From Stegostoma tigrinum (taxonomy: Eukaryota), in assembly GCF_030684315.1 (NCBI RefSeq), contig NC_081365.1:56908481-56972480 (forward strand): a stretch of 64,000 nt of DNA, read 5' to 3'. Positions 3,961-63,094 of the stretch are shown piece after piece. A model generated the notes under the pieces. The model did no database searches and was not told where the DNA came from. It was given only the letters and a program-made list of their open reading frames with translations. The number at the start of each line of letters is the position of its first letter. Position 1 is the first letter of the stretch. Position numbers and translations under genes: made by a program.

Positions 3961-4023
3961 TATATTTCAAATGAACATGCCTCCTCCGCAAACTCCAATC
4001 AGTACATTCCAGACTGAACCATT

Positions 4024-4249
4024 CAAGATAATGAAATATGAGGCTGGATGAACACAGCAGGCCCAGCAGCATCTCAGGAGCACAAAAGCTGACGTTTCAG
4101 GACCTAGACGCTTCATCAGATGATCTGATGAAGGGTCTAGGCCCGAAACATCAGCTTTTGTGCTCCTGAGATGCTGCTGGGCCTGCTGTGTTCATCCAGC
4201 CTCACATTTCATTATCTTGGATTCTCCAGCATCTGCAGTTCCCATTATC
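4024..4249. mobile_element. Fold-back Penelope-derived element with two opposed minimal hammerhead motifs
   Basis: Near-perfect inverted repeat of about 97 bp arms centred near 4122; TSD actgaaccattcaaga at 4013-4028 and 4250-4265; same terminal repeat flanks the GIY-YIG remnant at 47.3-48.3 kb. Confidence 0.85.
4125..4152 (+). ncRNA. Minimal hammerhead ribozyme-like motif
   Basis: CTGATGA-A-GGGTCTAGGCCC-GAAA-CATC: CUGANGA and GAAA boxes, stem II, and an NUH triplet; activity untested. Confidence 0.6.
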
Positions 4250-4269
4250 ACTGAACCATTCAAGAGAAG

Positions 4270-5230
4270 TTTTTACTCATTTCACATTTGCTTCCTTTCC
4301 AAAACACTTTGAACTACGAGCCCCAGTTCTTGATATTTTTAGACACAAGAATAATGTGTCTCTATCATGACTCATGATTTTGAAAACTGCCATCAAATCT
4401 CTTCTTAGCCATTTCCCCTCCAAGGAAAGCTGTCCCAATTTCAACGTGTCTACGTAACTGTAGTGTCTTAGCCCTAACATGATTCTCATAAACCTTTTCT
4501 GCGCACTCTCAAACACATTTGCATCCTTAATACTGTATAGTATCCAGAACATTACACAATACTCAAGCTGACGTCTAACTAGTTTCTTATACAGGCTCAG
4601 CATAATATCCATGCTTTTGTACTCTGTACTCTTACTAATGAAGCCTAGAAGACTTAATACTTCAACAACACTCTCTAACTGTCCTGCCATGATGATCTAT
4701 GCACGTCTAAATACACATAGCTCTGCTCCTGCCCACTCTTAATAGTGCTCCTTATGTTGTGTTGTGTGGTCATTTCATGTTCTTTGCACCAAAAACACAT
4801 TGCCTGACACTTCTTTGCACTGAACGTCTGCCATTTTTCTGCCCATTTAACGCTTGACAATGTCCTTTTAACGATAACAAGGTCTAGAGCTGGATGATGT
4901 CCTTTTAAAGTTCTATTCTGCTCTTCTGAGTTCACAAAGTTTCAAGTGATCCACAAATTCTTAAACTGTCCCTTGAAATCCCAAATCTAAATCATTAAAA
5001 CATATCAGGAAAACCAAAGATCCCAATACAAGTCCCTAGGGACCACCACTGAAAACTTTTCTCCAGCTGTAAAAATATTCCCAAACTAGGGCACTCTCTT
5101 TACAATTCCTGAGCCAATTTTGTATCCACATTGCGACTGCCCCTTTTATTCTATCAGCTATAGCAGTCCTCCAGATTTATCGCATGGTGCTGCAGTGAAC
5201 GTCTCTTGAAAGTTCACATACATCACATGA
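4270..5230 (-). mobile_element. Older CR1 LINE fragment
   Basis: ORF 4277..4690 with SLYKKLVRRQLEYCVMFW and AQKRFMR CR1 motifs; degraded. Confidence 0.8.
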
Positions 5231-5401
5231 ACAGACACGTTAGAGTCAAGATAGCCACCTTTGATATGGTTGTTTTCCAGAAACAAATCGAACTGTCTTG
5301 TAGCCTCCCTACGTATCTTCCCGCCACAACCCTCCCACCAACATCCCTGTCTTCCGGTATTGGTTCTGATTGAGTTAGTTACAGCGTTCAAAGAAACATA
5401 C

Positions 5402-5603
5402 GTGTCATAGACATTGAGGAGCCAGTTAAGACACATGTCCACACAGAGAGGCACATTGACAAGGTTACTATGTTCTTGTTCCAGTCGATCGTAGATTGAA
5501 GTGAGGCAGTTAATTATCTCCAAAATATCCATTAGTTGATCATTTTGCTTGAGATTGTGCTGGTCAAAGGCCTCACAAGCACTTGGCAGAGAAAGAAGAT
5601 CCA
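5402..5603 (-). CDS. DMD: Dystrophin internal exon equivalent to human exon 65 (EF-hand 1)
   Basis: 202 nt, ttttccacag acceptor and gtatgt donor; [66 protein letters not shown](T); contained in ORF 5158..5628. Confidence 0.97.
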
Positions 5604-8600
5604 CTGTGGAAAAATAGGAAAGTAACATTTTAAAATTATGCTGGAGTTATTGGACAAGATTTCTAAAGGCCAAATCAATAAGATGGCATAACTTTGCTGT
5701 AAATTATCCTGCGTGCGTCAGCATTGCAATTCACGATGGGGCAAGTAAAATTATTCTGCATTATCCTATTTCAATATTGTCAATCAGAACTAATTTATTC
5801 CTCAATAAAAGAACAATATCTGAAGAGGGAGCAGAAGCATCAGCACACAAGCCCTCTTTTTCACTTGAGCATCATAAAACCTACTGTCTGTAGTATACAA
5901 GTTCAGAGCAAAGATTTAATGCATATACAAGCTGTGAATACCAGCAGCAAAATCCCATCGCAAATACAGACCATGAAATTCAGTAATAAAACCCAGCCAT
6001 AGATACAGACTGTGGGTATAAGAAACAAAATTGCACTCCAACGACAATGTGTGAAGTTCTATGATCTGATCAACCCTCAGTGTGGCCCTCCAATTTTCAC
6101 AAAAAAGTGTACATTTCTCCAATGCAACAGATTGCATATTCACTCTGTTTGAAACTTGTCTTGCATTTTGCTGGAATCTGTGCCCTCACTAATTTATTGA
6201 CGTCACTATATTCTGATGAAGGACTCTACACTTTATTTCAGCTTGCTGCAAATCATACATTTGAATAATGATGAGATTGATGAGATCACTAGTTATGCTT
6301 TTAGTCCCAAGCTATCGATCTTATAGCTCAATGTAAGCTTTCTAAAGTTTGTACTTCAACAGGAAGAATTTAAGAGCGACTGACTGTGGAACCTGCATAA
6401 TCTGAAGTCAGTTCCTGGGAGACCATGCAAATCAAGATTTATAATACACACCTACTGCCTCTCATCCTTATAAATGGAAGAAGATTACATCCCCATAATG
6501 GCTGTTATAAACCGGTCACTGCAAATATCCACAACCGAATTCTATCATGATCCGGGTGCACAAAACATCAGCAGAATTATACCATGATTTTAACACAAGC
6601 GCATGTGTGTTTGGGTTTGGGGATGGAGAATGGGATAAGATTGTGTGGCAATGTCGTACCACAACCTCATCAGGTCTGAAATTGTATTGTATCTTTAATG
6701 GGCAGAGTTAGGCAGACAGGCAATGGTCAAATCCAGAAAATCATAGCCCCTGATATCTCATCTAACAAAATCTGACAGCTTTACACTTTTATTGCAGTGA
6801 GTTGTATGTTCCTGAAAGAGAAGTGGTAATCGAATAAAAACTTGAAGCGGAGTAATCTGTAGGGCCATGGAGAAAGAATACGGAACTAAGTGAACACCTC
6901 TTTCAAGTGCCAGCACCAACATGAGGAGCTGAATGGACTCCAATTGTGCTATATCATATGGAGCAACAGCTGATACTCAATACAAAACAAGAAAACAACA
7001 CACGCTCCTTGAAAAACACACTAACAGAGTAAAATGCTGACACAACGGAGTAAAATAACGGGAATAGTTTGAACAAAAGATGTAGCCAAAGCCCAAGTTT
7101 GCATAACAGCAAATTAAAAACGGGCTCGAAACAAGAAGTAACATATATTTAATGCACACATGTGGATAACTTGGCAGAACAATATAGCTACACAGTAAGA
7201 CAGTGATCACATCTGAGCTGTAGGTCTTGCTTTGCTGCTGTGTGTCACACCACAATAACCAAATGATCCATGTTCCTCTAATACACATAAATCAAGAGCT
7301 AGTCTTTGAAAAAGTCATCATGATGTGCAGCTTGTTGCCAAGGTATTGGTTACTTTGTGTACCTTCAATAGATATAATTTAGGGGCAACCTATTTCAAAT
7401 GAAACTTATTCTTACTTAATTAGTTGAGCTACCTTTACAAACCTTCCTTTTCAAAAGTTCAACAACATGAATTGGCATGCAAATACTCATTGAACTATAT
7501 TAAGTTGAGGGCCTTGTCAGATATCAACAATCAACTATACCGTTTGTTACAATAGTTCCCGCAAGGAACTGAAAAACACTGTTCTCCTAATGTCAATTTA
7601 TTTGTGGAATTGGAGATGTGTGACTAGCATCACAACACTTTTATCGATGTGCTAATGAAGTGATAGCTAGATCCCCTTGAGGAAAATAATCAATGATAAC
7701 TAATTGATTCATTCAAGCAGTTTTGATGTAGTTTAATTAGAGACAAAGCCTTAGTCTAAATGGATCAAAGTTTGGAAAGACATTCGCAATCATTTCAGAA
7801 TGTACACACAACCCAAACTGACATGACATCTATTTGGTAAACGGATCAATGTTTTAAAAACAGTAAAACATTAAATTGCAATTAGCCTGAAGCTTTTAAT
7901 ATCAGAAAGATCTTGGAAGCTGATGTTGCAAGCTGAAGATTCTGCATCATTTATGTGATTCCAAAAATATGCAATTATAAAAGCACATTTTCATATTTAA
8001 GAATACAGGACAGAAGTAACTGCATTGTATTCATTACTTTATAATTTCAGCTGAACGTCTTTATTACCACCAAAGTGAAGCACACACCTAATGCTTGCAT
8101 TTTGTGCATGATTGCTTGTGACTCACATTCATGTTCAGAATTTACCATGGGATTTGTTGTTTGAAGTAAGACAATTGCCTTACTTCCATAATAAAAAATT
8201 GTGACAAATACATCATAATAGGGTTTCTTTCTGTTTGACACTTTCATCAACTTAATACGTATTCAATAATGTAATCCCTAGAATGCCACGAAACTGCCCT
8301 GACACAAACAAGTATTTGCAAGTTCTTTTGGTAATGTTGTCACCGACAGTATCATTTAGTGGTGTAATCCTGAACATGTTGAATCTGGATTGTCGAACTG
8401 GAGGCTTATGAATAATGATCACTTCAAAGTAATGGAGGGCAACCAGTCTCTACAGAACTGTTTCCCAGCAGGGAGTCAATACACTTAGAAGAGAGAGGGG
8501 GATGAGAAGATTGGCATGGTTAAAAAATTTGCACCCCTGATATTGACCTCAAATACACTCAGACCAAACCGTGATTAGCAAAACTGGTGCAGAAACCTCT

Positions 8601-9274
8601 TAAGACACACTAATGCGTGAGAAAAATTTTATGGACAAATAATTGTTGCATTTCAGTTGGGAAAATGGAATTAATATGTGTGGATCACAAGTAACACAAT
8701 TTGTGATAAAATAAAACTATCAACACAGGAAAGTGCAACTGCTTTGTCTGCATTTCACAAAAAAAATCCTTGAGTCTGATTCTCAACATAGTAATGATGG
8801 GCTGCTAATAAAAAGCCAGAAAAGCTGGGGAGACAAGGGGGCAGAAACTGGGTAGGATGGCTGCTTTGCTCAGTGGTAACTTGCATAGAATCGTAGCATC
8901 CCTGCAGCATGGAGAGGCGCCATTAGGACAAGTGGGCATCCCAGCCCTCACCCTATCCCTATCCTAACTCTATCCCTAGTCCAAGGTGAGGAATGAACCT
9001 GTGACCCTGGGATTGTGATGCAGCAGTGCTCACCAGTGAGCCACCATGACACCTTCTGAGTTGGACAAGGGAATTCTCCCTTTCCTCTCGACAGCCTTAG
9101 GGTGCAGGAACAAGGATTTCATTTTCTGAATGCTGGGTTGATATCCAGCCAGACACCTGCATCAGAAGGAAACTGATATCCTCTTCCCTCTCTAAAACAT
9201 TTCAGATTTGACAACAGGGCTTCTCTACACCCTCCAGTGGCAGAGTAGTGACATGTCCAGCATGGAAATATCGT

Positions 9275-9628
9275 GCATGGTGGCTTAGTGGTTAGCACTG
9301 CTGCCTCACAGCACCAGGGACCCAGGTTTGATTCCAGCCTCGGGCTACTGTGTAGAGTTTGCACATTCTTCCCTTGTCTGCGTGGGTTTCGTCCGGGTGG
9401 TCCGGTTACCTCCCACGGTACAAAGTTGTGCAGGGTAGGTGGATTGGACATGCTAAATTGCCCGTAGCACCCAGGGATGTTAGGTTAGGTGAGTTAGACA
9501 TGGAAAATGCAGGGGTAGGGGAATGAGTCTGGGTGGGACGCTCTTCGGAGGAGCGGTGTGGGCTTGATGGGCCGAATGGCCTGTTTCCACAGAATAGAAT
9601 CATAGATTCCCTACAGTATGATTCAATC
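9275..9628 (+). mobile_element. HE1-type V-SINE
   Basis: tRNA-like head (tggcttagtggttagc...ggtttgattcc), V-domain gagtttgcacattct...gtctgcgtgggtttc, CR1-derived tail gggccgaatggcctgtttccac. Confidence 0.85.
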
Positions 9629-9759: not shown

Positions 9760-10065
9760 CAGAGATAACAAAGTGTGGAGCTGGATGAACACAGCAGGAC
9801 AAGCAGCATCTAAGGAGCACAAGAGCTGACGTTTTGGGCCTAGACCCTTCATCAGAAAAGGGGGATGGGGAGTGGGTTCTGAAATAAATAGGGAGAGAGG
9901 GGGAGGCGGATTGAAGGTGGTTAGAGGAGAAGATAGGTGGCAAGGAGACAGACAAGTTAAAGGGGTGGGGATGGAGCCTGTGGAGGTGAGAGTAGGTGGG
10001 GACGGAGGGAGGAGATAGGTCAGTCCAGAGAGGATGGACAGTTCACAGGGCGGGATGAGGCAAGG
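9760..10065 (-). mobile_element. Penelope-like element 3' terminal fragment
   Basis: Reverse complement of 24740-25070 and 47965-48275; hammerhead-like motif at 9828-9855 (GAAA changed to AAAA). Confidence 0.8.
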
Positions 10066-10613
10066 AGGCAAAACGTCATGTTCCCACGATTCAAAGCCTT
10101 GGTTAGATAAGACTTGGAGTATTGTGAACTGTTCACGGCATAATTCAATAGGAACAATATTTTGTCCATAGATCAAGTGCAGTAAAGAGTTAGCAGAATG
10201 ATACATGGACTCCAAAGGTTAAATTATTATGAGAGATTATGCAAACTAGAATTGCTTTTTTTAAAAAATTTTAACATTATGATGTAACATTATCAAGGTT
10301 TTCAAGAAACTATGAAAAAATTATATGTTTGAGAGAAAGAAAATATCTCTACTGATTAGGAAGTCTGGGTTTAGATGACATAACCACAAATTGAGGCTTC
10401 TCAGAAGTGAAGCTTGTAACGAGTAGGTAAAGTCTGGAACTCCTCCATAAATGGGAATTGATGCTGGGTCAATTGTTAGTTTTATTCTGAAACTGAGTTT
10501 TTTTTTGTTAACCAAATACGTTCAAAAGATAATTGGCAAAAACTGGATACATGGCGTTGGGTCACAAATCAGTCATGATCTCGGAGCAATGGGACAGGTT
10601 TGAAGGGGTAAAT

Positions 10614-10779
10614 TTGGTTGGAGACAAAAAAACTGCAGCTGCTGGAATCCAAGGTAGACAAACAAGAGGCTGGAAGAACACAGCAAGCCAGGCAGCATGT
10701 GGAGGAAGGGAGAAGTGAACATTTCAGGTATTTGTAATGCTGCCTGATGCTCTATTCTTCCAGCCTCCTATTTATCTTC
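10614..10779. mobile_element. Older fold-back Penelope-derived element
   Basis: Arms gaggctggaagaacacagca..ggcagcat / atgctgcc..ttcttccagcctc; TSD tttgaaggggtaaat at 10599-10613 and 10780-10794. Confidence 0.7.
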
Positions 10780-10800
10780 TTTGAAGGGGTAAATAGCTTA

Positions 10801-18627: not shown

Positions 18628-18920
18628 CGTGACCTATACTTTAAAAAGAGCAACAATGTAGGTATGAAAGCTGAGGTGAACTAGTGTATTAGTCTGAGAG
18701 ACAGATCAGTACAAAAGGAATTATTATTATTTAGAGGTATATTTCAGGGAATAGAATAAGTACATTTCTACTGTACAGTAAAATTTTTAGGGGAGGACCC
18801 AGCGTGTCATCTGCTGTGGCAAAGGTTTTAGAATAGATTGTTGAGGAGCACGTGGGAAACCTCATGGCAATTGAGAATGTCGCACCAAACTTAAGGGCAA
18901 AAAAACACATTATCGACAAA

Positions 18921-19115
18921 TATAATGGGAACTGCAGATGCTGGAGAATCCGAGATAACAAAGTGTGGAGCTGGATGAATGCAGCAGGCCAGGCAGCATC
19001 TCAGGAGCACAAAAGCTGACATTTCAGGCCTAGACCCATCATCAGCGGGTCAGCTTTTGTGCTCCTAAGATGCTGCTTGGCCTGCTGCATTCATCCAGCT
19101 CCACACTTTGTATCT
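18921..19115. mobile_element. Fold-back Penelope-derived element
   Basis: Inverted arms of the same terminal repeat; TSD cacattatcgacaaa at 18906-18920 and 19116-19130; hammerhead-like motif on minus strand at 19018-19045. Confidence 0.85.
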
Positions 19116-19689
19116 CACATTATCGACAAAGGTCAGTGGCAGGTCTGACGACTGGTCAGAATATAAAAAAGGTAGCATTTTATTACACTGAGGAAACACT
19201 GTTGTTGCAATAGTGAATGAGTGTAATTGAAAAGTCTCCACATGCACGACTTTGTCACTAAGCTAGCTACCAATATGAAAAACGGTTCATTATCTGATGC
19301 TAAAGGTATTTATCATTATTACCTGTGAATACGTGCACGCTTATTAATGGTTATGGCTGACAACGGGGAGGGTGTGGGGGAAATGTTTGCGAGGGCCATG
19401 AATGAAGCAACCAGGGTTGGGAGGGGAAGAAGAGACAACTAATGGGGCCCATAAGCGCCCTCCCCCCATGAACTCAATCATGCTCCCCTTCAATCCCATC
19501 CATTCTCTCCCCTCCAGCCCCATTTGAATCTTGCACCTGCACTGTGCACATGCAGACTTTTGCGCAGGACGTAACAACGTTCAGGACCTGGAACTGTGTG
19601 CATGTGCATTGCCGTGTGAATGTGTATGCACAGTCACCCCAAGCATTCAATGTCACCAAACACTGCTTATAAAGAAGTGATTAAATTGG

Positions 19690-24110: not shown

Positions 24111-24697
24111 GCTCCTGCTCTTAACAGCTAATGTATTTTGGATTAGTAATTTAACTAGTTCCATTTTTAATGCAGCTCCCCACCTTGCTTTCCTTTATCA
24201 TCTTTCATTGGCACTTCATAGATCAATGCATCAAATGCAACATCTATTGGATCACCTCTTCTCAAACTGTCATCCAGGGCCCCAAATGCTCCTTCCGAAT
24301 GTAAGACATTCACATATCTCCCTGTACTGTTGTCTATTGGATAGATTTTCTGAAACAGGCTTGAAAAATGTTTCTTTCCTCTCAAACTTATTTTCATATC
24401 ACTGAATATAAAGCTGTTATGAAACATGTTTTACAATTTTAAAATCAATTTGCGAATCGTTCTGCCTTAATAATATGCCCTTGTATATTGAAGAGTGATA
24501 ACCTAAAAAATAGGCTTATCACAAACAAGAACTTTCAGTTGCTCTGAGAATACACCACCTCTGAGCAAGTTAGAGGTAATCCTGCCATACTCTTCCACGA
24601 CCATGGGGCTGCTCTCTCATTAGTGACACGTGACTGGTGGTGACTTAATCTGAGTCACCATGACTCAGGCAAGAGAAGAGATTGAGATGAAGAATCC

Positions 24698-25072
24698 CCT
24701 CCCCCCACTGCATCCCAAAACCAGCCCAGCTCGTCCCTGACTCCCTAACCTGTTCTTCCTCTCACCTATCCCCTCCTCCCACCTCAAGCCGCACCTCCAT
24801 TTCCTACCTACTAACCTCATCCTGCCTCCTTGACCTTTCCGTCCTCCCCGGATTGACCTATCCCCTCCCTACCTCCTCACCTATACTCTCCTCTCCACCT
24901 GTCTTCTCCTCCATCCATCTTCGGTCCACCTACCCCTCTCTCTCTATTTATTTCAGAATCCTTTCCCCATCCCCCTTTTCTGATGAAGGGTCTAGGCCCA
25001 AAACGTCAGCTTTTGTGCGCCTAAGATGCTGCTTGGCCTGCTGTGTTCATCCAGCTCCACACTTGGTTATCT
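24698..25072 (+). mobile_element. Penelope-like element 3' terminal fragment
   Basis: C-rich tract plus terminal repeat; hammerhead-like motif at 24980-25007; approximate TSD gatgaa(g/a)aatcc at 24686-24697 and 25073-25084; inserted in a SINE. Confidence 0.82.
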
Positions 25073-25916: not shown

Positions 25917-26230
25917 GCACGGTGGCTCAGTGGTTAGCACTGCAGCCTCACAGCGCCAGGGACCCGGGTTCGATTCCAGCCTCAGGCAACTGTCTGTGTG
26001 GAGTTTGCACATTCTCCCCATGTCTGTGTGGGTTTGCTCCGGGTGCTCCGGTTTCCTCCCACAGTCCAAAGATGTGCAGGCTAGGTGGATTGACCAAGCT
26101 AAATTGCTGGTAGTGTTCAGGAATGTGTGGGTTATAGGGGGATGGGTTTGGGTGGGATGCTGCAAGGGGCGGTGTGGACTTGTTGGGCTGAAGGGCTTGT
26201 TTACACATTGTAGGGAATCTAATCTAATCT
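25917..26230 (+). mobile_element. Young HE1-type V-SINE nested in an oppositely oriented HE1 SINE (about 25785-25905 and 26240-26360)
   Basis: ggcacggtggctcagtggttagcac...gggttcgattcc head with intact CpGs; ctactg occurs on both sides; flanks are the tail and body of a minus-strand copy. Confidence 0.88.
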
Positions 26231-26841
26231 ACTGAGTTTGCACACACGTGGACACTGTGGTGAACTGAGCATGATCAATTCACCTCACCTGCACATTATT
26301 GGACTGTGGGATGAAACCAGAGCACCAGGAGGAAACTCACGCAGACAGTCGCCTGAGGCCGCTCCTGCAATTACACAGGCATAGGCCTTCTTTAAAAAAA
26401 GTTTACATCAAGAGTCTACATCTGAAATGTTCTACCGAGTGAAGTTTGGAAGGCATGCTCTGTGTGTCGTATCATTTCTATTTTCGCTTAGTATTTCCTT
26501 CAGTTCTAGTTCTATACCATTTGAGCATCTTTCTCTGACCTTTTGCTCTTTGAGTGATTGCTTGTTGCCTCACCAAGATGATATTTGTATATCGACTGTC
26601 ACTTTTCATCTCATTCCAACATTTCAAAAACACTTGCTGGCTATTTAACTCACCAGCTTCACTTTGTGATAGAAATTAGAATTTTTCATACCTTTTGTTC
26701 CATTTGTTAATGTTGTTTTGCCTATTCGGGACAATTTTATCTTGAACTTACACTTCTGATGAAGTCTTCACAAGAAAAATACTATCTCACATTTCTTGAT
26801 GAGAGATCATAGAATGACAAATCAGAAAGAAGACCATTCAA

Positions 26842-27028
26842 AGATAATGGGAACTGCAGATGCTGGAGAATCCAAGATAACAAAGTATGAAGCTGGAAGA
26901 ACACAGCAGGCCAAGCAGCATCTCAGGAGCACAAAAGCTGACATTTCATCAGTGAAGGGTCTAGGCCTGAAACATCAGCTTTTGTGCTCCTAAGATGCTG
27001 CTTGGCCAACTTCACACTTTGTTATCTA
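26842..27028. mobile_element. Fold-back Penelope-derived element
   Basis: Inverted terminal-repeat arms; TSD agaccattcaa at 26831-26841 and 27031-27041. Confidence 0.82.
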
Positions 27029-27589
27029 GGAGACCATTCAATCTATCTTGCCTAGGCCAGGATTTTGAATGAGATATCAAATTAGTTACACTTCTTTCTC
27101 TTTCTCCATAAACCAAAAAGTTCTATTTATTTGTGTCTACTTAACTGTTGTTTTGCTAAATCAGTCAATAAAATATCAATAGTTAATTAGTAGCAAAAAA
27201 TGACCCCAAGACCCTTCTCAAGAAATAAAGGTTGATTTCATGTGTGAATCTGCAAGATTAAGAGTTCAGATTTGAGATTTTGTTGAAACTTAATTCACGC
27301 TGTTGGTTTAACAATCTTAATTACAATGATACTTGAAGATAGATAATTTAGAAATACGACTGGCATATGATTCAAGCCTAAACGCTCATAGTATTTTTGA
27401 TATTTTGTTTATACATAGTTCTCAACATGTTTGTATGGCCTCATACATTGCTAATTCATTTGGTTGAATTTTTTTTGTCAGCTTTCTTGATAGCTATTCA
27501 CTGGACATTTGTCCTACAGATGTATTTTGAGATTTACTTGATTACTTTTGATAAAGATTATGGTGTTGAAATGGATTGTGGATCTCATT

Positions 27590-28080: not shown

Positions 28081-28178
28081 CTCTGATGAAGGGTCTAGGC
28101 CCGAAACATCAGCTTTTGTGCTCCTTTGAGATGCTGCTTGGCCTGTTGTGTTCATCCAGCTTCACACTTTGTTTCTAA
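28081..28178 (+). mobile_element. Solo Penelope terminal-repeat fragment with intact hammerhead core
   Basis: ctgatgaagggtctaggcccgaaacatcagc at 28083-28113. Confidence 0.8.
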
Positions 28179-33489: not shown

Positions 33490-34655
33490 GGTGCCACTGA
33501 TCCTCATAGTGATTAGTGGTAGAGGCGATGAAGGTAGTTTGTAGGAGTGGACAGAGAATTGGCTAACGGGCAGGAAGCAGCGAGTAGCAATAAGGCAACC
33601 TGCAAACAGTGGAGATCCACATGGATCAATGCTGTTTACAACATATACTCTTGACCTGCAAATGTACTGTAGTAACATTTGCAGATGACCCAAGAATAGG
33701 TGGAAAGGCAAGTTGTGAGAGGGATGCAAACAATTTACATAGAGATTTTAATTGTTTAGTAAATGGGAAAAAGTTTGTAAGTGGAGCATAATGTGGGAAA
33801 ATATGGATTTGTTCATTTTGTAACAAAGAACGAAAGAATTGAGCATTATATAAATGGGAAAAAAGCTGCAACACAAAGGGACTTGGGGGTATGTGTTCAT
33901 GAAACACAAAGCTAGCACAGGTCCAGCAAGTAATCAGGAAGGATAATGGAATGGAGGCCCTTATTTCAAGGAGGTTGGAATATAAGAATAGGGAAGTCTA
34001 GCTGCGACTGTACAAGATGCTGGTGAGACCACATCTAGAGCACTGAGAGAGGTTTTGGCCCTCTTATTTCAGTAAAGATATCATTTAATTGGAAACAGTT
34101 CCAAGAAAGTTCACTAGGATGATATCGGTACAGAGGGATTGTCTTCTGAGTAAAGGTTAAACTGGTTGGGACTCCACCCATTGGAGTTTCAAAGAATGAG
34201 AGGTGATCTCATTGAAACAAACAGGATTCTTAAGGGGCTTGACAGACAAAATGCTGAGAGGATGTTTCCCTTCATGGAACAGTCTCAGCCAAGAGGGCAT
34301 AGTCTCAGACTAAAGGGGCACAACTTAAAACTGAGATAAGGAGGAATTTCTTCATTCAGCAGATTGAGTGTCTTTGGAATTCTCACTGCTGATAGCTGTG
34401 AGGGACAGAATCCTTGTGTATAATTAAGTCTGAAATAGACAGATACTTGATTAGTAGGGGAATCAAGAGTTATGAGGAAAATGCAAGAAAATGGATGTGA
34501 GGAATGTCAGTTCTGAGGAAGGGTCACTGGACCCGAAACATTAACTCTGATCTTTTCTTCACAGATGCTGCCAGACCTGCTGAACTTTTCCAGCAACTAC
34601 TATGTCAGGAATGTCAGATCAGGCTCAAGGGACAAAATTGCCTACTCCTGATCCT
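33490..34655 (+). mobile_element. CR1 LINE 3' part interrupted by a Penelope terminal fragment (34511-34606)
   Basis: TFADDPRIGG motif and CR1 3' UTR; insert flanked by aggaatgtcag at 34500-34510 and 34607-34617. Confidence 0.8.
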
Positions 34656-45789: not shown

Positions 45790-46635
45790 TCAGTCGTTCC
45801 AGATTAAACCTTTGATTAAGGCTATTCTGGCTCACTGACATGGCTGAGAAAGTGGTTGAGTGGCAGTCGACAGAAAGTAGGAATAATGGGGAGGTACTCA
45901 AATTGGCAGGTTGTGACCAGTGACATCCCATAAGGATCGGTGTTAGTGCTTCACTTATTCACCTTAGTTATTAATGAATTGGATAATGCCATAAGAATTT
46001 GCTGATGATACAAAAGTTAGACAGCATTACTGACAGTGTAGATGATTGCATTAAATTACAAAGGGATATTGATAGACTAGGTGAATGGGCAAAACTGTAC
46101 CAGATAGAGTTCAATGTAAGCAAGTGAAATTTTATCCATTTTGGACCGATAAGGGATATATCTGGGCTCTTTCCAGATGGTTTGAAGTTAAATACAGTGG
46201 ATGCCCAAAGAGACTTGGGAGTTCAGGTACATTGACTTTTCAAATGCTACAGTTAGGTGCAAAAAAAAATCAAGAAAGCTAATGGAATGCTGACATAACA
46301 AGGTGTCGAGCTGGATGAGCTCAGCAGGCCAGGCAGCATTAGAAGAACAGGAAAGCTGACGTTTCGGTTCTGCAGAAAAATCAGAATGCTGGCCTTTATA
46401 CCAAGAGAACTGGAGTACAATTTTACTGAAATAGGTTTATAGGAATGATATCGGGACTTCAGGGTGAAGTTATGAAGGGAGATTATACAAAGCAGGCCTG
46501 TTTTCTCTAGAATTTAAAAGGTCAAGGGGTGATCTCATCAAAGTCATCAAGATATTGACACGAAAAGACAGGGTTGGTAAAGATAAACTATTTCCACTGG
46601 TTGGGGATTATAGAACTGGGGGGGCATAGTCTGCA
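45790..46635 (+). mobile_element. CR1 fragment with Penelope terminal fragment inserted (about 46293-46383)
   Basis: tttgctgatgatacaaa (FADDT); insert flanked by gaatgctg repeats. Confidence 0.75.
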
Positions 46636-47334
46636 AATTATGGCGAGCAGTATCTGCTTCTGCTACCATTTGGGCAGCCAATGTGATGATCCAAATCCCA
46701 TTCACTCTACTGCTCACCCTAAAACTACCCACAATTTGTGTCATAACAATGTTCGCTCTAAATCGTGTGGCCATGCAGCAATCAGGGAGTTCCTACAAAG
46801 GCAAAGCAGAAGTTGGTCCTATTTAAAGAACCTGCACAAAAACGTAAAGGGCATGCACTCTTAAATAAATTACCTCCAGCTGAGGAAAATCTAGGCTAGG
46901 ATGTGAAAGTCAATGAAACAACTTTATCGTCGATTTCTATCCATGATCCCAGTTACTACTCTGTACCACTTTGAATTCTGTCTGATTTGGAGTTTGCCAA
47001 AAGACAGCATCCCCAGTATATATCTGAGACATATTTTTTCTAACCTGTTCTTCTTGCACTCATCAGGACATTCACAAGAATGCCAATGTAAAGTGTCATG
47101 ATGCCTGCTGATGGTAATACTGAGACAAATCAGTTTCCAGAGTGAAGCCTGGTTTTGCAATGAGTATTATATTAGCAATTTGATTACCAAGGGAGTTCCG
47201 TCATTGAACATATTCACAAAAAGCAGTTCTGTTAACAGAAGAATATAGTTTATTACACAAAATGAAAGGAAAAAAAAACTATATTTAAAATAAATGGAAA
47301 TGTCTTACCATAAACGGTGAACTCAATGATTCAA

Positions 47335-48312
47335 GATAACAAAGTGTGGAGCTGGATGAACACAGCAGGCCAAGCAGCATTACACTTCCGCTATCTACAA
47401 TCCGACCCCATGACCAAAGACATTTTTCCATCCCCACCCTTTTCTGCTTTCTGGAGGGACCACTCTCTCCGTGACTCCCTTGTCCGCTCCATACTCCCCT
47501 CCAACCCCACCACACCCGGCACTTTCACCTGAAACCGCAGGAAGTGCTACACTTGCCCCCACACCTCCTCCCTCTCCCCCATCCTAGGCCCCAAGAAGAC
47601 TTTCCAGATCAAGCAGATGTTCACCTGCACATCTGCCAATGTGGTATACTGCATCTGCTGTACCTGGTGTGGCCTCCTCTACAGGGGGGAAACCAAGCGG
47701 AGGCTTGGGGACCGCTTTGCAGAACACCTACGCTCGGTTCGCAACAGCACCTCCCAGGCGTGAACCATTTCAACTGCCCCTCTCATTCCTTAGACGACAT
47801 GTCCATCCTGGGCCTCCTGCAATGCCAAAATGATGCCACGCGAAGGTTGCAGGTACAGCAACTCATATTCTACTTGGGAACCCTGCAGCCTAATGGTATC
47901 AATGTGGATTTCACAAGCTTCAAAATCTCCCCTCCCGCTACTGCATCCCAAAACAGGTTAGGAAACTAACCTCCATTTCCTACCTACTAACCTCATCCCG
48001 CCCCCTTGACCCGTCCATCCTCCCCGGACTGACCTATCCCCTCCCTACCTCCCCACCTACACTCTCCTCGACTGGCTCCATCCCTGCCTCTTTAACTTGT
48101 CTGTCTCCTCTCCACCTGTCTTCTCCTCCATCCATCTTTGGTCTGCCTACCTTTCTCTCTCTATTTATTTCAGAATCCTCTCCCCATCCCCCTCTCTGAT
48201 GAAGGGTCTAGGCAGCTTTTGTGCTCCTGAGATGCTGCTGGGCCTGTTGTGTTCATTCAGCTCCACACCTTGTTAACTCGGATTCTCTAGTATCTGCAGT
48301 TCCCATTATCTC
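47335..48312 (+). mobile_element. 5'-truncated Penelope-like element with GIY-YIG endonuclease pseudogene and inverted 5' terminal piece
   Basis: Frames give KCYTC...FTCTSANVVYCICCTWCGLLYRGETKRRLGDRFAEH...NHFN...H...QQLIFYLGTLQPNGIN; 3' terminal repeat; inverted repeat piece at 47332-47380; TSD tcaatgattcaa at 47323-47334 and 48317-48328. Confidence 0.9.
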
Positions 48313-48339
48313 CAAGTCAATGATTCAATTCTTTTTCCC

Positions 48340-58647: not shown

Positions 58648-59078
58648 CAATACAGTGTGCAGCTGGAGGAACACACGTCAGTCAGCATCAGAGGAGTAGA
58701 AGAGTCAATGTTATAGGTCTGGACCCTTCAAAAGGACTGGGGAGGAGGAAGAGAGCTGGGAAATAAATGGAGGGAAGAGAGGTGGGGCTGTGGGAAGGTA
58801 GGTGGGATGGTGATTGGTGGATACAGATAGGGGTAGAGGGGATTGGTCAGTGGGAAGGGTGGGGGAGGAGATGGACAGGTAGCATCAGGCCAAGGAGATG
58901 GGGATCAGCGGGAAGACTGGACATGGGATAAGGCCAAGGTGTGGAGATTTTGAAACTGGTGAATTTTATGTAAAGGCCTTCAGGCTGTAGGTTCCTGAGG
59001 CAGAATATGAGGTGTTGTTCCTCCAGCTCCACACTGTTTCAAGTCTGACTCCAGCATATGCAGTTCTTGCTATCTCCC
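58648..59078 (-). mobile_element. Penelope-like element 3' fragment (second subfamily) with inverted terminal piece
   Basis: ORF 58847..59032 (LEEQHLIFCLRNLQPEGLYIKFTSFKI) is homologous to the GIY-YIG C-terminus near 47.9 kb; cagatccagt duplicated at 58638 and 59084. Confidence 0.8.
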
Positions 59079-61535: not shown

Positions 61536-62094
61536 AGTTCAGACTTGTTCTGGGAGGTGGTTAATTGACAGCACTTGAACCCATGCCCTTGAAAGTGGAT
61601 GTACACTGGTTACTCCATCTGAACAGAATCATGACAGATACATCTTTTACACACATCGTATGTTCACACACATACGTTTTCGATAAGCGATTTTGATAAA
61701 CATCAGATTTTGGTGCCCTTACTGATGGCACCCCCTTTAGGATACTGGAATCATTCAACTGTCTTTTAACTATTGACTGAGTTGATATCAACGCTTGACT
61801 TTGTCGTTATGGCCACTAGTTGGCTGAGGGGAGAAAAAGGCTGATTTTGTGGACAATACCTGTATGTTATTGTGAATTCTGAAGAATCCGAAATGTTAAC
61901 TCTGCTCTCTCTCCACAGAAGCTGCCAGACCTACTGAGAAATTCCAGCAATTTCTGTTTGGTTCCTGAATGGTAATATTTTGTTTTGGGTAAGCCTGGGG
62001 AGGAAATTGGCAAGATACCATTGTCAAGCTGAATTCTGCTCCCTCAGGCCTGCAGTCTTGCAGCAAATTTCCATGGAGTGATCAAGAGTTGAAG

Positions 62095-62293
62095 ATACAA
62101 AGAACTGCAGATGCTGGAGTCAGAGATAACACAGTACGGAGATGGAGACGCACAGCAGGCCAAGCAGCATCAGATGAGCAGGAAAGTTAATGTTTTGAGT
62201 CAGGACCCTGAAGGTTTCTCACGAAGGGTCCCAACCAGAAATGTCAACTGATGCTGCCTGGTGTGCTCTGTTCCTCCAGCTCCACACTGTGTT
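62095..62293. mobile_element. Fold-back Penelope-derived element (second subfamily)
   Basis: Arms gataacacagt.ggagatggag / ctccagctccacactgtgttatc; TSD atcaaga(g/t)ttgaag at 62081-62094 and 62294-62307. Confidence 0.75.
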
Positions 62294-63094
62294 ATCAAGA
62301 TTTGAAGCTCAGTTTATTTACTCCATCTAACTAAGGGCACTGTAATCAATTATAAACACTGTCCTGGCTGATATCAGCACAGTCCAGGACTGTACAGTTC
62401 AGCTCCTCACTGAATAAACTCACGAAACCACTTTGTATGTTTGCTCAGGCAAGGTCTCGATGTTCATTCCTAATTGCTTCTGCCACCATTTCCAGGAAAA
62501 AATACATAGTGGCAGATGTTAGTCATGGAGACGGGTGAAAGCAGTTGGGTTTAGTTGACCGCTTTTAAGTAACAATTACATTTTAAAGCATGCTCACTGA
62601 CATGTAAAATGTTTCTTTTAAGTTTCCAAGCATTCTCTCATCAGAAAATGTACTGTTTTTTTGCTTTGTTTTGTGGCTCTATCTTCTCTGAGTTAGATAT
62701 TTCAAAGGCTTTCTTCTCAAATTGTGTAACTAGTTCTTAATGTGTTAACAGCTGTTCTGTTATTTTGATAAACTGCAATTATTGCACAAACTATTGTGAT
62801 TTGGTTTTAACTTTCTATCATGGATTGAATTTTTTATGGAATGATGAAGATAACATTAGCTGAAAAGTTGGGGCATGAGTTTTAGTCTGCTTGGCTGGGT
62901 AGACCTGAGTTGACTTTGTGCTTGTCAAGCAGTCAGCTCACTCAGAGGAGGACTCAGGCTGCCACCTGGGAGGGGGCTCACATCCATCTCAGAGGGGTCT
63001 TGCCTCCAGGAGTTGCCAGTCAACCAGATAACCAGCAGCTTTTGAGTCCCAGTGGTGCCGCCAACAGTAGGCCATTCCCAAAGGCATTTCTTAT

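Follow-up and report, generated by a model that had tools for sequence, protein, structure and literature searches.

The stretch of Stegostoma tigrinum DNA analyzed here (64,000 nt of contig NC_081365.1; hereafter, the window) contains an exon-sized match to EF-hand_2 on the minus strand at 5158-5643 (E 3e-19), which we take to be exon sequence of the dystrophin family. The window appears to lie within a dystrophin-family gene transcribed from the minus strand, in which case the element under study, at 4013-4265, would be intronic. This element consists of two head-to-head copies of a Penelope-like element (PLE) terminal repeat (pLTR), flanked on the plus strand by an exact 16-bp direct repeat, ACTGAACCATTCAAGA (4013-4028 and 4250-4265), which an earlier note on this DNA had correctly recognized as a target-site duplication (TSD). 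Because the last 5 letters of the left TSD also match the adjoining arm, the outer end of the left arm is ambiguous by 5 nt. With +1 of the family set at the C of the CTGATGA core, family alignment resolves a tail-less inverted short arm on the minus strand (4029-4120, family 0 to about +92), a junction of three letters, TGA, templated by the upstream sequence of neither arm (4121-4123), and a tailed arm on the plus strand (4124-4249, family 0 to +125), whose terminal 33 nt (4217-4249, plus strand) constitute a PLE tail present on the right arm only. The near-complete inverted repeat of about 225 bp described previously is a real fold-back of 221 bp (4029-4249), but a lopsided one with 33 nt unpaired on the right; its inverted arms are 92% complementary across 88 nt, and one strand folds with a predicted energy of -171 kcal/mol (z = -23 relative to 200 shuffles).

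Both hammerhead motifs proposed for this copy, at 4125-4152 on the plus strand and 4119-4091 on the minus strand, were recovered by motif scanning, but neither is intact. The plus-strand motif (predicted cut after 4152) retains helix II and reads GAAAC-ATC where the family has GAAAC-GTC, so that the palindromic ACGU of helix III is broken (ACGU to ACAU), while the minus-strand motif retains ACGU and has a disrupted helix II; neither conforms to the minimal-hammerhead definition (core and palindromic 15.2-16.2). The expectation that a transcript of either strand would be a hammerhead-containing hairpin holds for the sequence as such, but in that hairpin each motif pairs with its own antisense: the predicted transcript is one long duplex in which helix II cannot form, with a computed probability below 1e-13 for the helix II closing pair on both strands. 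Because the two motifs lie on opposite strands, a dimeric hammerhead within a single RNA is likewise impossible. The Rfam hammerhead models, suggested as a check, returned no match in the 64-kb window up to E = 1. The element also drew two miRNA-precursor matches from Rfam (E 0.012 and 0.038), well short of the gathering threshold, which were set aside, as the hairpin alone explains them.

The same layout had been proposed for four other loci in the window, where fold-backs and direct repeats are indeed found; none of the four, however, carries two hammerhead cores, which leaves the focal copy as the only one of the five to do so. Two are sister insertions: 18906-19130 joins a left tailed arm from +1 to a short arm from about +27 within a 15-bp exact TSD and has one core, and 26831-27041 joins a left tailed arm from +21 to a short arm from +5 with an internal deletion within an 11-bp exact TSD, its single CTGATGA straddling the junction. 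The remaining two are older related fold-backs, one without a remaining hammerhead core (10599-10794, 15-bp exact TSD) and one without a CTGANGA core (62081-62307, 14-bp TSD with one mismatch). Furthermore, a version of the layout of about 1 kb occurs at 47320-48328 (15-bp TSD, one mismatch), in which a short arm (+47 to +96) stands head to head with a tailed arm that extends to -820, inside the endonuclease-coding part. Single arms of the focal or related families were also seen at 9763-10218 (-), 24691-25072 (+; without tail, with a 12-bp direct repeat containing one mismatch), 28081-28173 (+), 46295-46367 (-) and 58656-58730 (-). A solo arm of another family at 34500-34617 carries the hammerhead core CTGAGGA with a longer helix II, and its direct repeat measures 11 bp. 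Two inverted-repeat pairs (26021-26347 and 8977-9347; 75-77% complementary) fall outside the pLTR family by BLAST and are probably oppositely oriented interspersed repeats.

A genome search with window positions 47381-47960 yielded 20 loci (L051-L070), all 20 of which have the same pLTR behind the endonuclease region. At one of them, L062, a 637-aa open frame ends upstream of this pLTR; it matches RVT_1 (E 5.7e-6, short of the Pfam gathering cut-off) and includes the motifs YIDD, CNRRKCYTC and YCIHCTRCGFLSIGET. The Pfam search of the L062 frame named no GIY-YIG family, and a GIY-YIG-type motif, Y-x-IGET, was read directly from it; a PDB sequence search with the 637-aa frame gave no match. At locus L168 the pLTR and tail continue into an open stretch of at least 480 codons, such that the parent has its pLTR both across the start of the ORF and again at its 3′ end (L168; L051-L070). 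These coding loci with reverse transcriptase (RT), GIY-YIG motif and the same pLTR identify the arms as the pLTR of an endonuclease-bearing (EN+) PLE, and thereby bear out the proposal that the arms are terminal-repeat sequence carrying minimal hammerheads. In the youngest copies (L168:1382-1510; L091), the pLTR contains an ATG at +46, and a stop codon follows directly after the tail (+127 to +129), both lying before the long open frame. Between RT and EN, the L062 frame includes CNRRKCYTC (residue 460), a CX4CxxC motif; in the available part of PMC8557442, a CX2-5CxxC linker in this position defines the Neptune/Nematis clade, and by this linker motif the parent is of Neptune/Nematis type.

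Published accounts of the EN+ PLE insertion unit, in the portions accessible to us, describe an inverted 5′-truncated pLTR, a 30-40-nt tail at one end and a TSD (PMC3846280, PMC8557442, PMC2377424). An RT and GIY-YIG parent, pLTR, inverted copy, tail and TSD are all present in the shark family, of which locus L105 provides an example with a long inverted 5′-truncated pLTR. As far as those portions extend, the two agree in the head-to-head inverted repeat, the one-sided tail (33-35 nt), the TSD, a pLTR overlapping the ORF start and a parent with RT and C-terminal GIY-YIG. They differ in that the short shark element, or stub, is composed of two pLTR pieces with no coding part and is present in thousands of exact copies, and in the concentration of its inner ends at two defined positions, a feature those portions do not describe. 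The layout is therefore already published, and the stub is a minimal, very abundant member rather than a new element class.

The earlier note had left two options for such copies, independent truncation/inversion products of PLE insertion or a non-autonomous retrozyme- or MITE-like family. An unselected sample of 1.334 Mb, made up of the window and 127 stretches of 10 kb at even spacing, yielded, with older related families counted in, 330 arms and 84 pairs standing head to head, a density of about 63 pairs per Mb. The 73 pairs of the first 107 stretches plus the window measure 108-3,930 bp and nearly all have different junctions, and arms form a continuous size series from ~40 bp to >2 kb. 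TSDs flank 60/83 unselected pairs compared to 7/180 control intervals, with a mode of 14 bp (28/68) and most at 14-16 bp. Genome-wide, a pattern of both cores and a center of at most 14 nt had 5,728 exact matches. Among the first 50 of these, comparison of junctions (hand count, strands folded) distinguished 29 different centers, of which the commonest, AGAGCTCT, occurred in 7/50 and that of the focal copy was absent; recurrent centers are found on two or three arm/tail haplotypes (few copies per center). The differing centers favor independent products, as the note had judged. Simple truncation/inversion, on the other hand, does not describe them, as their outer ends are two fixed start sites and their inner ends are strongly non-random. 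The retrozyme- or MITE-like option is disfavored by the many centers, the occurrence of the same center on varied subfamily backgrounds and the continuous arm sizes; these lengths and centers lack the uniform length and shared internal sequence of a MITE, whose symmetric terminal inverted repeats are also missing because the tail makes the ends asymmetric.

Outer ends cluster at +92/93 and at +125 (reference end); when defined by the TSD edge, the clusters fall at +92 and +127, with a range of +125 to +129 for the latter. Of 84 unselected pairs, 74 unite a tailed with a tail-less arm, 2 have no tail, 1 has two tails and 7 could not be classified, so that one tail per pair is seen in 74/77 classifiable pairs (p = 5e-19 against 50:50). 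Individual exceptions are L249, with a tail on both arms, an AGCT center and no TSD found, and L202, with a tail on neither arm. TSDs also flank 35/218 solo arms (20 short, 15 tailed; control, 7/180 intervals), and the existence of TSD-flanked solo arms of both kinds implies that both outer ends act as priming sites. Mean primer-template microhomology at the two outer ends is 1.6 and 1.5 nt, values given for description only. The two priming sites agree with results for an anole PLE protein, predicted to be a dimer, which cleaves and extends both target strands and in vitro has two start sites that bound the tail (PMC11167929).

The two arms of an insertion are coupled. Of 55 young pairs, 22 have the longer 5′ extension on the short arm, 20 on the tailed arm and 13 on neither, and long arms occur on both sides in 7, on the tailed side only in 2, on the short side only in 0 and on neither in 46 (Fisher p = 1.8e-7). 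Within a concordance set of 126 elements, a mix of unselected and search-selected loci, the arms disagree at five subfamily sites in 7-10 of 119-124 comparisons compared to 35-57 upon shuffling, and rare variants are common to both arms in 20 cases versus 1.8. These coupled arm lengths, subfamily letters and rare variants point to twin priming, mostly on one RNA. Arm discordance nevertheless amounts to 6-8% compared to a 2.1% background, or about three times, and two elements, L106 (2495-2736) and L204, have arms that differ at 4 of 5 diagnostic sites and belong to different subfamilies; from this excess and these two elements we infer that some insertions used two templates. Gene conversion between arms after insertion, together with center deletions, could inflate both the concordance and the variety of centers.

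Toward the core, 49/60 core-containing arms, at loci picked by pattern, stop at -1 to -5, and among unselected arm ends 39/110 fall at -8 to +3 compared to 2/110 at -100 to -9. Young solo insertions also start at -2 to 0 (8/25), which makes the stop independent of the palindrome. A TATTTAT begins 34 nt before +1 in 149 cases (35 nt in 12 cases of the TTTT subfamily), that is, 30 nt before the C of the commonest center break (-3; -4 in a few TTTT-type centers). This C sits in C-C-T-C-T-C-T or C-C-T-T-T-T-C, a context that fits the TCT initiator consensus. The RNA likely starts at the C at -3/-4, and short arms would then be run-off copies from the 5′ pLTR; alternatively, a polymerase pause at the C-run could produce the stop at -1 to -5. 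The accessible part of PMC2377424 describes the Drosophila Penelope promoter as internal and TATA-less, from which the TATA-like start inferred for the shark PLE would differ. A splice acceptor was also considered as the cause of the stop; TTTATTCCAG at -22 is acceptor-like, but only 2/110 unselected arms end at -100 to -9 and the centers show no constant upstream exon. A peak at -13/-14 reflects how a subfamily differs from the reference and is not an arm end.

A second inner end coincides with the predicted ribozyme cut after GUC(+28). Palindromic centers were counted as AGCT(+29) in 709, ACGT(+24) in 39, GGCC(+16) in 202 and GGCC(+56) in 21 copies, using patterns of 24-34 letters that are hence not exactly matched; among 1,947 loci where both arms are short, 24 of the first 50 have the AGCT(+29) center (hand count). 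Family sequence starts at +29 behind three non-family letters in 3,219 cases compared to 185 at +27. The first 100 of the 3,219 comprise 64 AGCT centers, 10 with a second microhomology and 26 others (hand count), and these others extrapolate to about 840, some of which may be internal deletions; a single junction, which AGCT/AGCT annealing favors, makes up roughly two thirds of the +29 count. Of 153 anchored arms in the unselected sample, 5 begin at +29, and one element contributes two of these. Pairs that combine an RNA-start arm with a cut-site arm do not stand out (roughly 8 among the first 100 of 4,613, hand count), as would be the case if the template of both arms were in the same state. 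The +29 pile-up is likely a trace of hammerhead cleavage in vivo, and a reverse-transcriptase pause at the hammerhead fold could yield a similar peak; RNA start and cut are both read here from DNA ends. For the anole PLE, cleavage is not required and no RNA-seq reads end at the cut (PMC11167929).

Minimal-hammerhead-like motifs number 74 in the 1.334 Mb of unselected DNA and 0, 0 and 0 in three shuffles. The family motif ends in CGTC in 51/74 and has helix II GGGTCTAGGCCC in 48/55, and it possesses the minimal-hammerhead core CUGANGA/GAAA/UH with one bulged base, G10.1-C11.1 and a palindromic 15.2-16.2. Helix I is 2 bp in 48/55 motifs, short of the 4-5 bp of the minimal-hammerhead definition and weak for a ribozyme. 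In PMC4209133 the helix I consensus is 4-5 bp, with 2 bp in D. virilis; the metazoan PLE minimal hammerheads described there share the CUGANGA core, one bulged base, a helix II that G10.1-C11.1 closes and a palindromic ACGU replacing helix III with the shark family, and pairs on opposite strands 100-700 bp apart were already noted. Four of the 74 motifs, at unselected loci, have a different, longer helix II (GTTACC...GGTAAC / GGTGAC) and probably belong to another element family.

We consider it probable that the focal element is a dead-end head-to-head pLTR insertion, made anew by twin priming from two fixed starts. Briefly, a PLE protein, probably a dimer, would nick both target strands about 14 nt apart, after which the two 3′-OH ends would prime synthesis, one from the short start and the second from the tail start, in most cases using a common RNA. 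With priming in the 5′ pLTR, the two cDNAs would extend for about 95 and 128 nt before running off the RNA at its 5′ end. A TATA-like box 30 nt upstream and a TCT-type initiator make a Pol II start at -3/-4 the likely origin of this end, which in a minority of RNAs would instead be the hammerhead cut at +28/+29. The cDNA ends would then be united by end joining, often via short microhomologies or a few added letters. The long versions would arise from priming in the 3′ pLTR, and the textbook inverted 5′ pLTR from a single priming event in each of the two pLTRs. The focal copy crosses the cut site on both arms (0/0, with the TGA insert) and would thus derive from uncut RNA.

Three other explanations were weighed against single-RNA twin priming. 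Twin priming might instead draw on two RNAs within one particle, for example in an ACGU-paired double hammerhead with both RNAs cut or both uncut. This is consistent with the two of 126 elements whose arms are clearly of different subfamilies, with site discordance at about three times background, with the abundance of cut/cut centers (709) and with minimal hammerheads being thought to act as dimers (PMC4209133), and RNAs of one source locus would mimic every sign of a single RNA. Nevertheless, the coupling of long with long arms, the shared rare variants and the shared locus-specific tandem units described below are simpler with one RNA, and if a single RNA offers two priming sites, the strict one-tail rule is a direct consequence. 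We regard the use of two RNAs as unlikely. Self-priming or fold-back, in which one cDNA (or an antisense template) copies itself and later deletions at the center vary the junction, would account for the high arm identity and the shared rare variants, and the known tendency of long perfect palindromes to undergo deletion counts in its favor. A similar route with an antisense template is suggested for head-to-head PLE junctions in the available part of PMC3846280. Barring subsequent deletion, however, a tailed cDNA that folds back keeps the short arm inside the tailed arm, whereas in 22/55 pairs the short arm has the longer 5′ extension, sometimes by hundreds of bases; nor does self-priming explain arms of two subfamilies or why the outer end of the short arm matches that of TSD-flanked solo short arms, and we judge it very unlikely.

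Finally, palindromic masters might be transcribed, hammerhead-processed and reinserted by the PLE enzyme as a self-propagating non-autonomous family. Some centers do recur (the commonest in 7 of 50 hand-counted copies; AGCT in 709), and an AGAT center occurs in one orientation in 12 of the 30 loci most similar to the query, a set selected by similarity and for that reason left out of the junction-sharing test as the 30 best BLAST relatives; single masters may have given small bursts. Against such a family stand the 29 centers among 50 loci, with the recurrent ones on two or three haplotypes, the continuous arm sizes, the lack of an upstream TATA-like box in the stub and the abolition of the ribozyme fold by the fold-back. 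Copying of a palindromic RNA would furthermore leave nested, four-arm products, whereas only 1/676 arms has a tail-to-tail neighbor within 40 bp, which also argues against self-propagation. We consider such a family highly improbable.

A genome search with the sequence behind the tail gave loci with tandem arrays; arrays of this kind were seen elsewhere in the genome at L110:4969-6196, L091:6743-8444, L171, L174 and L186-L192 (G000:C11 near 34.44 Mb). Their units consist of pLTR and ORF start, ~300-450 nt, rejoined to a point upstream of the core, and the join differs at nearly every locus. Two arrays, flanked by TSDs of 15 and 12 bp, are themselves arranged head to head and have the same locus-specific unit on both arms. 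Such arrays fit copies of circular or multimeric RNA made by the same machine, possibly by rolling-circle copying, and are retrozyme-like: same-strand tandem units with a hammerhead each, as in retrozymes, are found at L091, L110, L171 and L186, whereas the motifs of the focal element are on opposite strands. Within the accessible text on non-LTR retrozymes (PMC7229834; bioRxiv 10.64898/2026.07.22.740005), these are small, non-coding and PLE-pLTR-related, with a type I hammerhead and TSDs >4 bp, all of which resemble the focal element, but they are same-strand tandem repeats in place of its two opposite-strand motifs; to that extent the tandem arrays fit the retrozyme layout better than the focal element does.

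Poseidon PAc of Anolis (PMC11167929) resembles the shark system in its two starts bounding the tail, its cutting and extension of both strands, its predicted dimer and its pLTR hammerhead. That work did not assign one start to each arm of an insertion; PAc showed no RNA ends at the cut, whereas insertion 5′ ends of the shark family peak at the predicted cut, and the shark parent, unlike Poseidon PAc, has the CX4CxxC linker of the Neptune/Nematis type. Within the open-access literature searched, we found no account of the twin-priming reading, the two end peaks or the shark palindromic stubs. In LINE-1 twin priming, an additional cDNA is primed from the other target strand on the RNA already in use, which yields an inversion within a TSD, and the two pieces represent different parts of the RNA, with the second start set by microhomology. 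In the shark stub, by comparison, the two arms are copies of one stretch, each begun at its own fixed start.

Taken as a whole, it is possible, and we propose it tentatively, that the stubs preserve a fossil record, across the genome, of the Penelope integration complex, that a dimer copies one RNA twice from one fixed start per target strand, that this RNA begins at a TATA/TCT-type start 4 bases before the core, that a hammerhead with a 2-bp helix I cuts in the germ line, and that the same machine also rolls round small circles, writing head-to-head retrozyme-like arrays. The origin of the inverted ends and one-sided tail of PLEs and the in vivo cutting of minimal hammerheads are questions raised in PMC4209133, PMC11167929 and the accessible part of PMC8557442, and thousands of young minimal products turn them into exact predictions that can be counted, namely a single RNA with two priming starts, transcription beginning at -3 and ribozyme cleavage at +28/+29. 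The stub ends likely record where PLE RNA starts and where the ribozyme cuts, and inserts this dense would place many long double-stranded hairpins in host pre-mRNAs.
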